From Escherichia coli (GTDB lineage: Bacteria > Pseudomonadota > Gammaproteobacteria > Enterobacterales > Enterobacteriaceae): a stretch of 64,000 bases of DNA. Position numbers: made by a program. Shown here in pieces: positions 38,501 through 44,500 of this stretch. The stretch lies in assembly GCF_044324875.1 (NCBI RefSeq), contig NZ_CP172185.1. The stretch is one strand, 5' to 3'. How positions within the stretch are numbered: the stretch's first letter is position 1; every line of letters starts with the position of its first letter.

Positions 38501-41500
38501 GGGGTTACAGCAATTTTGTCATTACTTACACATCCCGCCATCAGCAGGCTTAGCGCAACGAGCGCGGCTACTTTCTTCATTGTGGTTCTCAATTACAGTT
38601 TCTGACTCAGGACTATTTTAAGAATAGAGGATGAAAGGTCTTTGGGGATTATCTGAATAAGCTCCCCTGGAATGCAGGGGAGCGGCAAGATTAAACCAGT
38701 TCGTTCGGGCAGGTTTCGCCTTTTTCCAGATTGCTTAAGTTTTGCAGCGTAGTCTGAGAAATACTGGTCAGTGCTTCTGCTGTCAGGAATGCCTGGTGCC
38801 CGGTAAACAGCACGTTGTGGCAGGCAGACAGACGACGGAATACGTCATCCTGGATCACGTCGTTGGATTTGTCTTCAAAGAACAGATCGCGTTCGTTCTC
38901 ATACACGTCCATACCCAACGAACCAATTTTCTGATTTTTCAGCGCTTCAATTGCCGCCTGAGAATCAATCAATGCACCGCGACTGGTATTGACGATCATC
39001 ACGCCATTTTTCATCTGATCGAAGGCGGCTTCGTTCAACAGATGGTAGTTTTCCGGTGTCAGCGGGCAGTGCAGAGAGATAACGTCTGATTCAGAGAACA
39101 GGGTTGGCAGATCGACATACTCCACACCGAGTTCCAGTGCCGCCGCACTTGGATACGGATCGAACGCCAGCAGACGCATACCAAAACCTTTCAGAATGCG
39201 CAGCATCGCCACACCGATTTTACCGGTACCGATAACGCCTGCCGTTTTGCCATACATAGTAAAGCCGGTCAGACCTTCCAGAGAGAAGTTGGCGTCACGA
39301 GTACGCTGATACGCGCGATGAATACGGCGGTTCAGCGTCATCATCATACCGATGGCGTGTTCAGCAACGGCTTCTGGATCATAGGCTGGAACACGGACTA
39401 CTTTCAGCCCCAGTTCTTTTGCCGCGTCAAGGTCGACGTTATTGAAACCGGCACAGCGCAGGGCGATATATTTAACGCCGTGCTTTTTCAGCTCTTCCAG
39501 CACCGGGCGGCTGCCGTCATCGTTTACGAAAATACATACCGCTTCGCAGCCATTGGCGGTTTTAGCGGTTTTTTCCGTCAGCAGAAAGTCAAAAAATTCC
39601 AGCTCAAAGCCAAAGGACTCGTTCACCTGTTGCAGGTACTTCTTGTCGTACTGTTTTGTGCTATAAACGGCGAGTTTCATAAGACTTTCTCCAGTGATGT
39701 TGAATCACATTTAAGCTACTAAAAATATTTTACAAAATTTCAAATATAATTGAAAGCTATGGCGATATTGAAAAATTCATCAACAACTATGCTTAGTGTA
39801 GGCGCAACCTTCAACTGAACGGTTAAACATGCCACAATACCCGTATTGAATGCTTAATTTTTCGCTAAATCAGGATATTAACTACCCATGCTGGGTAAAT
39901 ATAAAGCCGTTCTCGCGCTGTTATTACTGATTATTCTTGTGCCGTTGACGCTGCTGATGACGCTCGGCCTGTGGGTTCCCACGCTGGCGGGCATCTGGCT
40001 ACCGCTCGGGACACGTATTGCATTAGATGAAAGCCCACGCATTACGCGTAAAGGTTTAATCATCCCCGATCTCCGTTATCTGGTGGGAGATTGTCAGCTT
40101 GCGCATATCACCAACGCCAGCCTTTCACATCCCAGCCGCTGGTTATTGAACGTCGGCACGGTAGAACTTGATTCTGCTTGTCTGGCGAAATTGCCGCAGA
40201 CGGAGCAATCGCCTGCCGCTCCAAAAACCCTCGCGCAGTGGCAGGCCATGTTGCCTAACACCTGGATCAATATCGATAAACTGATTTTTTCTCCCTGGCA
40301 GGAGTGGCAGGGAAAACTCTCTCTCGCGTTAACCTCTGATATCCAGCAACTGCGTTATCAGGGCGAAAAAGTTAAATTTCAAGGCCAGCTGAAAGGGCAA
40401 CAACTTACAGTCAGCGAACTGGATGTCGTCGCGTTTGAAAATCAGCCGCCGGTTAAACTGGTGGGGGAATTTACTATGCCGCTCGTGCCGGATGGACTTC
40501 CTGTAAGTGGTCATGCTACTGCGACGTTAAACTTGCCGCAGGAGCCTTCACTGGTGGATGCCGAGCTGGACTGGCAGGAAAATAGCGGGCAATTGATTGT
40601 GCTGGCACGGGATAACGGCGATCCGTTGCTCGATTTGCCGTGGCAAATTACTCGCCAACAATTGACCGTAAGCGATGGTCGCTGGAGCTGGCCGTATGCA
40701 GGTTTTCCTTTGAGTGGCCGACTGGGTGTTAAAGTCGACAACTGGCAGGCAGGGCTTGAGAACGCTCTGGTCAGCGGACGACTGAGTGTGCTGACCCAGG
40801 GGCAAGCGGGTAAGGGCAACGCGGTGCTTAATTTTGGCCCTGGAAAATTAAGCATGGATAACAGCCAGCTGCCTTTGCAGCTGACCGGTGAAGCGAAACA
40901 GGCGGATCTCATTTTATATGCCCGCTTACCTGCGCAGCTAAGCGGAAGTCTGACTGACCCAACGTTGGCCTTTGAGCCAGGTGCGTTATTACGTTCGAAG
41001 GGAAGAGTCATCGATTCGCTGGACATCGATGAAATCCGCTGGCCTTTAGCGGGTGTAAAAGTCACCCAACGTGGTGTTGACGGACGTTTGCAGGCCATTT
41101 TGCAGGCGCATGAAAATGAACTGGGCGATTTCGTGCTGCATATGGATGGACTGGCGAATGATTTTCTCCCTGACGCTGGCCGCTGGCAGTGGCGCTACTG
41201 GGGAAAAGGCAGTTTTACACCGATGAATGCCACCTGGGATGTCGCAGGAAAGGGTGAGTGGCATGACAGCACGATTACGCTGACCGATCTCTCCACCGGT
41301 TTCGACCAGTTACAATACGGTACGATGACGGTAGAAAAGCCGCGACTAATTCTCGATAAGCCCGTCGTCTGGGTACGTGACGCACAGCATCCCTCCTTTA
41401 GCGGCGCGCTGTCACTGGACGCCGGGCAAACGCTGTTTACTGGCGGCAGTGTGTTACCGCCATCAACCTTAAAATTTAGCGTCGATGGACGCGATCCGAC

Positions 41501-44500
41501 GTATTTCCTCTTTAAAGGCGATTTACATGCTGGTGAGATTGGCCCGGTTCGGGTAAATGGTCGCTGGGACGGTATTCGTCTGCGCGGTAACGCCTGGTGG
41601 CCTAAACAATCACTGACTGTATTCCAGCCGCTGGTGCCACCCGACTGGAAGATGAACTTACGCGATGGTGAACTGTATGCTCAGGTTGCATTTTCTGCTG
41701 CGCCTGAACAAGGATTCCGCGCGGGAGGGCACGGCGTGTTGAAAGGCGGTAGTGCCTGGATGCCAGATAATCAGGTTAACGGTGTCGATTTTGTCCTGCC
41801 TTTCCGTTTTGCTGATGGAGCCTGGCATCTGGGGACTCGCGGCCCCGTTACGTTGCGAATTGCCGAAGTGATTAATCTGGTGACAGCGAAAAATATTACG
41901 GCTGATTTGCAAGGGCGCTATCCGTGGACTGAAGAAGAACCATTGCTGTTGACTGATGTTAGCGTCGATGTGTTAGGCGGTAACGTGCTGATGAAACAAT
42001 TACGTATGCCGCAACATGACCCGGCGCTGTTGCGGCTGAATAATCTCTCATCCAGCGAACTGGTTAGCGCCGTCAATCCGAAACAATTCGCCATGTCCGG
42101 GGCATTTAGTGGTGCATTGCCGTTATGGCTAAACAACGAAAAATGGATAGTGAAGGATGGTTGGCTGGCAAATAGCGGGCCAATGACCTTGCGACTGGAT
42201 AAAGACACCGCAGATGCGGTAGTGAAAGACAATATGACCGCGGGTTCAGCAATTAACTGGTTGCGCTATATGGAAATTAGCCGTTCATCGACAAAAATTA
42301 ACTTAGATAATCTCGGTTTATTAACCATGCAGGCCAACATTACAGGTACCAGTCGCGTTGATGGTAAAAGCGGTACGGTAAACCTTAATTACCATCATGA
42401 AGAGAATATTTTTACGCTGTGGCGCAGTTTACGCTTTGGCGATAATCTCCAGGCATGGTTGGAGCAGAACGCACGTCTGCCGGGAAATGACTGTCCGCAA
42501 GGAAAAGAGTGTGAGGAAAAACAATGAAAATTTTACTGGCTGCGTTGACGTCATCTTTTATGCTGGTTGGCTGTACGCCTCGCATTGAAGTCGCTGCACC
42601 TAAGGAACCGATCACTATCAATATGAACGTTAAAATTGAGCATGAGATCATCATCAAGGCAGACAAAGATGTCGAAGAGCTGCTTGAGACTCGTAGCGAT
42701 CTTTTCTGAGGCGATGATGAAGAGAAATTTAATGCTGTGTTTTGTCATTAATGCCTTATTTAGCACCAGTGCGATGGCTCTGACGCTGAATGACGCTCGA
42801 ACTCAGGGGCGTGTTGGCGAAACGTATAATGGTTATCTGGTTGCATTAAAGGCGGATACCGAAACACAGATGTTAGTCAAAAGGATTAATGAATCGCGTA
42901 ATAAGAGCTATCAACAACTCGCCATGAAAAATAATCTGCCGGTTGCGGAAGTGGAAAAATTGGCGGGGCAAAAACTGGTAGCAAAAGCTAAGCCTGGAGA
43001 ATACATTCGCGGGATAAACGGGATGTGGTTGCAAAAATAATAAGTCGGTATTCGTCGAAAAAAATCTCCCTGGTTGCACCTCCTGAAATATTCAATATTA
43101 ACTGCAATGCTATTGAGAATTATTTTTCATTTAATTTCATATAGATGCCGATGATGAATGCTTCATTCACATGATAATTTATTTATTTCATGAATTAATT
43201 GCATTATTTAATTCATCGGTGTTATCGGATTCAATCTCAATTGCGCCATATTTTAAGTTGAAATAAATGCGTTAAAAATATAAATTAAAGAAAAGATGTA
43301 TTGACTTAATGAATAAATATATTCGCTAAATCAATATATTTATTCTGTTAAAAACAATATCCAGATTTCGAATATTTGTAACTATTTAACCCTGTGCAGT
43401 TTATTTGGGCTGCGTAATCATCTATTTATGAGGAATTTCATATGCAAAGGAAAAAATTGCTCAGTGTCTGTGTTGCAATGGCGTTAAGCAGTCAGACATG
43501 GGCGGCAGATACGTCGATAGCGGAAACATCGGATGAATCTCGTAAATCCAGCAAGATTAGCTGCCCGGCTAATATTAAATCACTAAGTAAAGAACAGCTA
43601 GAAAAGCTGCCGGCAGAGTGTAAATCAGTTGAAGATAATGAGTTATTACCCTGGGCTGCAGTGGGGCTGGCAGCGGCAGTCACAGGCGTCGCAGTATATG
43701 CACTCCACGATAATAATAATCATCATGACGATCCGTCTCCGGTGCCGGATGATGGCGGTGATACACCCGTCCCGCCGGATGATGGCGGTGACACGCCAGT
43801 CCCGCCGGACGATGGCGGCGATACACCCGTCCCGCCGGATGATGGCGGTGATACACCCGTCCCGCCAGATGATGGCGGCGACACACCTGTCCCGCCGGAT
43901 GATGGCGGCGATACACCCGTCCCGCCGGATGATGGCGGCGATACACCAGTCCCGCCAGACGACGGCGGTGACACGCCAGATGATGGCGGCGATGATACCC
44001 CGGACGACGGTGGCGATGACACGCCAGTCAAACACGATCCTGTGGTCTATAAAAACGATGTCACCTGGGATCAGGACGCGAAGACCCTAAAATTACGTGA
44101 TACCACCTTTACCTACGCCAAAAATGACGATGGCAGCTATACGCTTACCGGACCTGGCGGCACTACCACAATCGTGAAGGATTGGTTAGTCGACGAGGCG
44201 GCTAACACGGCTTCGTTCAATGGCGTCAATCCTGGCGGAACCTCCACCTGGCGCTATGACGAAGCGGGAAAAATCGAAATAATCATAGAGTCACTCACCA
44301 CCGCAGACGGTACAACTGGCGAACATTTCCATATTAACGATGCCACTATTACCGACCATGGCGGCAACATCGCCCTGAATGGCGGCGTTGTGATAAACGT
44401 TGACGGTAACGACATCACCCTGAACAACGACGGCAAAACTACCGCGATTGGTGAAGGTTCGGTGGTAGGTATTCTTACCGGTGATGATATCACCATTACT

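Follow-up and report, generated by a model that had tools for sequence, protein, structure and literature searches.

Can a periplasmic accessory protein be exchanged for a distant relative when the lipoprotein it binds stays the same? The question is raised by the ydbH-ynbE-ydbL operon in a 64,000-nucleotide (nt) stretch of Escherichia coli DNA (contig NZ_CP172185.1, assembly GCF_044324875.1), hereafter called the window, to which all coordinates refer. Compared with K-12, the operon encodes an identical YnbE and a YdbL that is only 62% identical. We consider it highly probable that this is a lipid-bridge operon with YdbL as modulator, and that its divergent but likely equivalent ydbL allele was co-inherited with the neighbouring ydbA region. 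The delivery of bulk phospholipid to the Gram-negative outer membrane long went unexplained, and YdbH-YnbE-YdbL is among the three redundant bridges proposed for it. The significance of the bridge itself belongs to published work and not to the window.

Three open reading frames (ORFs) on the plus strand occupy positions 39888-43040, where the original prediction had placed the operon with a first product of 879 amino acids (aa). The first, ydbH (39888-42527; 879 aa), encodes an inner-membrane-anchored AsmA-like, or repeating-β-groove (RBG), protein. It is followed by ynbE (42524-42709; 61 aa), encoding an outer-membrane lipoprotein, and by ydbL (42717-43040; 107 aa), encoding a periplasmic DUF1318 chaperone-like protein, here as a rare divergent allele. 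YdbH matched PF11739 (YdbH-like; E=1.7e-291, 970.7 bits for a cut-off of 26.3, residues 14-862) and the NCBIfam equivalog PRK10695 (NF007971; 1400.6 bits, cut-off 824), and YnbE matched PF13617 (YnbE-like lipoprotein; E=3e-16). YdbL matched both PF07027 (DUF1318; E=4.6e-29, 101 bits, cut-off 27) and the PDB entry 28oj_A, 'Probable chaperone-like protein YdbL' (E=7.9e-34, residues 22-107). YdbH is 99.5% identical to its K-12 counterpart, with four substitutions in 879 residues (A196T, S356T, T361A and I493V), and YnbE is 100% identical. Together with the profile matches, these identities bear out the predicted gene names, gene order, and lipoprotein and periplasmic assignments.

The surroundings are equally familiar. 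The upstream flank is the E. coli gene set ompN, ydbK/nifJ, ydbJ, hslJ and ldhA, the last four of which also flank the operon in K-12. Between the end of ldhA on the minus strand (39680) and the start of ydbH (39888) lies a divergent intergenic region of 207 nt (39681-39887), presumed to hold the operon promoter and 99-100% identical to K-12. The region 39600-43500 was matched in 5417 of 5426 complete E. coli genomes, with a top match of 99.1%. As in K-12 (b1381-b1383, studied by the Ruiz and Isom laboratories), the operon sits between ldhA and a variable region, with the same gene order, ATGA overlap and Shine-Dalgarno (SD) motifs. The locus is the E. coli ydbH-ynbE-ydbL operon, a real feature that is already known in detail.

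The predicted 4-bp overlaps hold for the first junction only. The ydbH stop and the ynbE start are fused as ATGA (42524-42527), and a GAGGAA SD motif lies inside ydbH, 7 nt 5' of it. The ynbE stop TGA (42707-42709) overlaps a GAGG motif and is followed by ATG codons at 42714 and 42717. The second of these is the ydbL start according to the Prokaryotic Genome Annotation Pipeline, is equivalent to the K-12 start and is used in the RefSeq annotation of K-12 and of the closest genomes. It leaves a 7-nt spacer after ynbE and no overlap; the alternative ATG at 42714 would leave a 4-nt spacer.

A divergent YdbL beside an unchanged YnbE

YnbE carries a lipobox (L14-V15-G16-C17, with Thr at +2), an alternating β-strand (I30-T-I-N-M-N-V-K-I38) identical to that of K-12, and an acidic C-terminal helix and tail, KADKDVEELLETRSDLF, residues 39-61 having a net charge of -5. 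In the window, every YnbE residue named in published work (C17, I30-I38 and K45-F61) matches K-12. An alignment of 9 homologues, the most distant at 31% identity, shows C17, P26, I32, N33, V36, H40 and I42 to be invariant. The synonymous divergence (dS) of ynbE from K-12 is 0.025.

YdbL presents a different picture. The protein is identical to WP_001523200.1 (strains NY1601 and 7/2). Its ORF is intact and preceded by an SD motif, and its signal peptide ends in AMA, the basic mature part beginning with LT. The mature net charge is +6 versus +3 in K-12, and the protein has 107 residues versus 108, the C-terminal Phe being missing. The crystal structure of K-12 YdbL has been determined at 2.12 Å (PDB 28oj), binding of YnbE(39-61) has been mapped on YdbL by nuclear magnetic resonance, and essential residues have been identified by mutagenesis (De'Ath et al., bioRxiv 10.64898/2026.03.16.712125). 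Thirteen of the 14 published functional or YnbE-interface residues are kept in the window: L24, R28, E35, Y40, N58, R61, Y65, L68, N72, K86, L87, W104 and K107. The fourteenth required position, I79, is occupied by Val, a conservative change at a site where I79A inactivates the K-12 protein. Other changes, which include E60S, R90K, E51Q and D77A, lie at positions tolerant in the published mutagenesis. YdbL of this strain thus shares the fold family of K-12 YdbL (PF07027; PDB 28oj) and its essential residues. It keeps the YnbE-binding residues and, judged from the sequence, is most likely functionally equivalent to K-12 YdbL. A natural YdbL with 62% identity stands here beside an identical YnbE and keeps the residues found essential by mutagenesis; it allows the published interface map to be checked independently, on evolutionary grounds.

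An alternative is that the divergent ydbL has functionally diverged or is decaying, with its role as YnbE chaperone lost or altered in strength. Such a change could be read from the low identity to characterised YdbL next to an invariant YnbE, from the substitution at I79 and from the net charge of +6, and YdbL is non-essential in K-12. However, the reading frame is unbroken and comes with an SD motif and a signal peptide. All 13 other required residues are kept, the substitutions falling at experimentally tolerant sites. Moreover, about 116 genomes carry the allele, which also survives as an 87% sub-variant. Finally, ydbL has a dS from K-12 of 1.63, which is saturated, and a ratio of nonsynonymous to synonymous divergence (dN/dS) of 0.14-0.16; the divergence is therefore old and has been under purifying selection. 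We regard functional divergence or decay as very unlikely. Positive selection or decay as the cause of the divergence was rejected on the same values (dS 1.6, dN/dS 0.16).

Probable recombination across the ydbL-ydbA region

How did an old allele come to stand next to an unchanged ynbE? Nucleotide identity to K-12 is 0.97-1.00 through ydbH and ynbE as far as 42711 and 0.58-0.78 from 42720, so that it drops from 99% to about 68% at the ynbE stop and ydbL start. Isolated mismatches occur at 42688 and 42712, and dense mismatches begin at 42724. As identity to K-12 falls there, the left recombination breakpoint was placed at 42689-42724. Farther downstream, no alignment to K-12 was obtained from 43040 to 47369, after which identity rises to 84%, 92.6% and, from pdxI on, 97%. 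The window-type spacer between ydbL and the ydbA-like autotransporter gene, together with the 5' end of that gene (43041-43700), was found at 90% identity or more in only 114 genomes. The spacer, the ydbA 5' end and ydbL therefore form one linked block. This haplotype block (42712-47369), made up of ydbL, the spacer and the ydbA passenger domain, is carried by about 114-116 of 5411 complete E. coli genomes.

Searches of the same 5411 genomes with three ydbL alleles (K-12, O157 and window) separated the K-12 type (at least 90% identity; 4776 genomes, about 88%), the O157:H7 type (at least 99%; 375 genomes, about 7%) and the window type (at least 90%; 116 genomes, 2.1%). A fourth class, with 80-90% identity to both the K-12 and O157 types, comprises about 144 genomes (2.7%). 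E. coli has at least four deep ydbL allele classes on a nearly invariant ydbH-ynbE background. Among the three sequenced types, YdbL identity is 62-71% over the full length and 67-78% over the mature part. In its mature part, the window-type protein shares 67-77% identity with each of the other YdbLs from Escherichia or Citrobacter. The other Escherichia types are 84-99% alike in their mature parts, and Citrobacter proteins are 72-84% identical to them; the window type is farther from the other Escherichia YdbLs than the Citrobacter YdbLs are. A donor was sought in two ways. A scan of one genome per species, which needs shared exact 8-mers, returned only Citrobacter at 64% identity. A protein search returned a tight E. 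coli-only cluster at 96-100% identity and a single variant at 87%; everything else was at 73% or below, and no donor emerged. The 87% variant sits on an Escherichia backbone.

The O157 lineage has undergone a replacement with a different left end: it begins farther upstream, within the 3' part of ydbH (about 42060), and extends across ynbE. Compared with the window, ynbE of O157:H7 FRIK2533 (locus L005, 8235-9274) has a dS of 2.1 with a dN/dS of 0.023, which shows strong constraint on YnbE. The only changes in the protein are E52D, E55K and changes in the signal peptide. E52D and E55K fall within the helix bound by YdbL, which raises the possibility of co-variation between YnbE and YdbL.

The most likely account of these patterns is that recombination at ydbA, a hypervariable gene for a surface-exposed autotransporter, repeatedly swept the adjacent ydbL along. 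The left junction of the swaps most likely fell at or upstream of the ydbL start, and selection on the YnbE-binding surface most likely keeps each swapped YdbL compatible with an unchanged YnbE. Rather than hitch-hiking neutrally with ydbA recombination, the ydbL alleles could be non-equivalent and tune bridge assembly and outer-membrane lipid homeostasis between lineages. Such tuning is conceivable because YdbL dosage and affinity would determine the amount of YnbE available for capping YdbH, the difference in charge (+6 versus +3) being one example. Nothing in the present analysis supports non-equivalence, and we hold it to be improbable. The window allele is a ready-made reagent for testing allele equivalence. 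No description of ydbL allelic diversity was found in the literature searched, where one paper simply counted ydbL among the core genes, at the border of the variable paa region. The allelic replacement of ydbL is a modest and apparently unreported side finding.

Smaller exchanges were also observed. P0014, a YdbL from an ENA contig, is chimeric: its signal peptide is of the window type and its mature part of the K-12 type. H42 (strain LP5-1, 2472394-2472450) is a 57-nt remnant without annotation, similar only to the 5' end of window-type ydbL. Together they indicate further recombination inside ydbL. Within ydbH, synonymous differences from K-12 cluster at 42117-42239 and at about 40900-41000, where divergence is about 10% compared with about 1-2% elsewhere; these patches are small-scale mosaic recombination. 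Five operon matches in the E. coli collection lie on plasmid-labelled records, and some genomes have two places for ydbL.

The proposed YdbH-YnbE-YdbL bridge

The experimental basis for a bridge was laid in K-12 by others and consists of synthetic lethality, YdbH-YnbE crosslinks, YnbE multimerisation, binding of a YnbE peptide to YdbL, and the YdbL structure. YhdP, TamB and YdbH are redundant, and loss of all three is lethal; the ydbH gain-of-function mutations T303I, G305W, G308C and G456V suppress tamB yhdP defects (Ruiz et al., mBio 2021, PMC8593681). Combining AlphaFold-Multimer predictions, genetics and in vivo crosslinking with p-benzoyl-phenylalanine (pBPA), Kumar, Davis and Ruiz (PNAS 2024, PMC11126948) described an inner-to-outer-membrane bridge formed by YdbH and YnbE through β-strand augmentation, with YdbL as a chaperone-like protein. 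In that study ynbE, and not ydbL, was essential in tamB yhdP cells; pBPA at YdbH W791 and W857 crosslinked to YnbE; YnbE multimerised, as seen by laddering, and prolines in its strand abolished function. Excess YdbL was lethal in tamB yhdP cells (PMC11126948). The original prediction had proposed an accessory complex around an AsmA-like lipid-transport protein, to be checked by structure prediction of the complex and by synthetic phenotypes with yhdP and tamB. Both kinds of evidence, and the YdbH-YnbE and YdbL-YnbE interactions themselves, are already published for K-12 (PMC8593681, PMC11126948 and bioRxiv 10.64898/2026.03.16.712125). That interpretation is supported, but as published knowledge rather than as a new hypothesis.

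As the YdbH of the window differs from K-12 only at residues 196, 356, 361 and 493, the crosslinking and suppressor positions W791, W857, T303, G305, G308 and G456 are all unchanged. Relative to K-12, ydbH has a dN/dS of 0.026 and a dS of 0.096. The protein has one hydrophobic segment, at about residues 6-40, and hydrophobic 19-mers occur only within residues 1-40. An exhaustive homologue search gave 596 cluster representatives at E<=1e-3, and an AlphaFold2 model was built from a 33-sequence homologue alignment. The model (mean predicted local distance difference test score 86.9) shows an N-terminal helix (residues 2-37), about 55 consecutive β-strands, and a C-terminal part in which a helix (841-862) is followed by a disordered tail.

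These features are compatible with the following mechanism. YdbH would be anchored in the inner membrane by its single N-terminal helix, its long all-β periplasmic domain presenting a hydrophobic groove. The YnbE strand I30-I38, as a monomer or short oligomer, would add to the last YdbH strand and complete the bridge to the outer membrane. Phospholipids would then travel along the bridge, a function redundant with TamB and YhdP; we infer both the flux through the groove and its direction. The basic pocket of periplasmic YdbL would bind the acidic C-terminal helix of YnbE and limit runaway, amyloid-like multimerisation, leaving YnbE in the right form and amount. Translational coupling, through the ATGA overlap and the 7-nt spacer with its GAGG motif before ydbL, may set the stoichiometry. 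The ydbL of this strain is a rare, anciently diverged replacement, co-inherited with the divergent ydbA block and most likely equivalent in function.

Conservation in distant loci bears on the respective weights of the two small partners. Seven distant loci encode YdbH homologues at 26-43% identity, and the downstream region is visible in six. A PF13617 gene directly follows ydbH in all seven, mostly with a 4-nt overlap; no DUF1318 gene adjoins ydbH-ynbE in any of the six. The C-terminal helix of YnbE, the part that binds YdbL, is well kept only where ydbL is present. Of the small partners predicted to be conserved, YnbE therefore stands. YdbL does not, being non-adjacent in the six distant loci and replaced here by a protein of 62% identity. 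The deeply conserved core is the pair ydbH-ynbE; ydbL lies at the boundary of a recombination hot spot. In the Pasteurellaceae-like loci (L009, L010, L011, L015 and L016), which have no adjacent ydbL, a PF27206 (HI_1241) gene of about 270 aa abuts or overlaps the ydbH start. Its product may be an alternative accessory partner of ydbH-ynbE.

Several points weigh against the bridge model with YdbL as modulator. One is the absence of an adjoining DUF1318 gene in distant loci, another the Val at position 79 of YdbL, and ydbL is dispensable in K-12 (PMC11126948). The predicted bridge, at about 180 Å, is shorter than the periplasm, at about 250 Å, and its authors state that lipid transport by YdbH-YnbE was not shown biochemically (PMC11126948). 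Profile alignment of YdbH with hhalign gave a marginal match to K-12 AsmA (probability 46%, E=2e-4, 222 columns) and no similarity to TamB (probability 3%). The match to Pfam DUF748 had E=0.065. Membership of the AsmA-like/RBG clan is therefore taken from the literature and from the orthology with K-12 YdbH.

The gap in the biochemistry leaves room for a reading in which YdbH-YnbE is no lipid conduit and acts on the envelope indirectly, for instance by tethering the membranes or by helping to assemble outer-membrane proteins, YdbA among them. The analogy is with TamAB, whose first proposed role was in autotransporter assembly. The operon of this strain does lie about 400 nt upstream of a BigA/YdbA-type autotransporter gene. 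However, the adjacency is not conserved: about 20 kb of fea, tynA and paa genes intervene in K-12, and no autotransporter gene stands beside ydbH-ynbE in the distant loci. In addition, ydbA is disrupted by insertion sequences (IS) both here and in K-12, yet the operon is under strong purifying selection, as the low dN/dS of ydbH indicates. Depletion of YhdP in tamB ydbH cells, moreover, leaves OmpA assembly unimpaired (PMC8593681). An indirect role thus appears hardly likely. We also rejected a working connection between the operon and its autotransporter neighbour, on the grounds of the non-conserved adjacency and the disrupted ydbA.

The lipid bridge that we favour can be set beside known systems. 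Like its AsmA-like paralogues TamB, which acts with TamA, and YhdP, YdbH is anchored in the inner membrane by its N-terminus, extends a long β-rich domain into the periplasm and makes a redundant but essential contribution to lipid homeostasis of the outer membrane. As TamB needs TamA, YdbH needs an outer-membrane partner, YnbE. However, YdbH is shorter than these paralogues (879 versus about 1260 aa), and in place of a β-barrel partner it uses a small strand-adding lipoprotein and a dedicated periplasmic modulator, YdbL. The Lpt bridge (LptC-LptA-LptD) offers a similar periplasmic β-sheet groove: acyl chains are shielded inside it, and its components join strand to strand. LptD was also the top Foldseek match, a weak one with TM-scores of about 0.1 and no real global fold match. 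Lpt is, however, ATP-driven, unidirectional and specific for lipopolysaccharide, whereas for YdbH-YnbE neither an energy source nor a direction is known. For YdbL, the authors of the bridge study drew an analogy to CsgC and CsgA of curli, where a small periplasmic protein prevents premature runaway β-strand polymerisation of its client (PMC11126948). CsgC has no sequence or fold relationship to YdbL, which is helical and binds the C-terminal helix of YnbE rather than the polymerising strand.

Neighbouring features

Rfam gave no match at E<=1 across 37500-44500. Consensus scans found no sigma-70-like promoter site in the ldhA-ydbH spacer and no plus-strand terminator-like site after ydbL, the overall counts of promoter-like and terminator-like sites being at or below shuffled expectation. 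Antisense ORFs within ydbH (e.g. 40511-41098, 195 aa) were without support and were treated as chance ORFs.

Downstream, the ydbL-ydbA intergenic region (43041-43441) is AT-rich (GC content 0.272, or 27%) and belongs to the divergent haplotype block. It is 99.3% identical to the corresponding region of strain 7/2 and unalignable (about 50%) with the O157 and EC958 equivalents. A 21-nt AT-rich tandem repeat occupies 43285-43345. The ydbA-like autotransporter gene follows (43442-50299), with BigA_N, BigA_beta and Autotransporter domains. A 30-nt repeat encoding PVPPDDGGDT occurs about 7.5 times in its N-terminal part (43744-43968). In place of this gene, K-12 has feaR-feaB-tynA-paa downstream of the operon. 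The fea-tynA-paa cluster is absent from the window, with no remnants; EC958 retains feaR and paaY fragments.

An IS1 copy (47664-48431; 9-bp target duplication ATGCTGGGG) interrupts ydbA. In strain 7/2, a close relative, the uninterrupted gene encodes 2026 aa. Between ydbA and pdxI lies an IS256-family element (50416-51730) with an 8-bp duplication, CAACTCAT, and a Mutator-type transposase ORF (50488-51696). A second IS1 (54042-54809), inverted relative to the first, truncates ydbD, of which about 100 bp are missing. The two inverted IS1 copies bracket the 3' end of ydbA, pdxI and the 5' end of ydbD.

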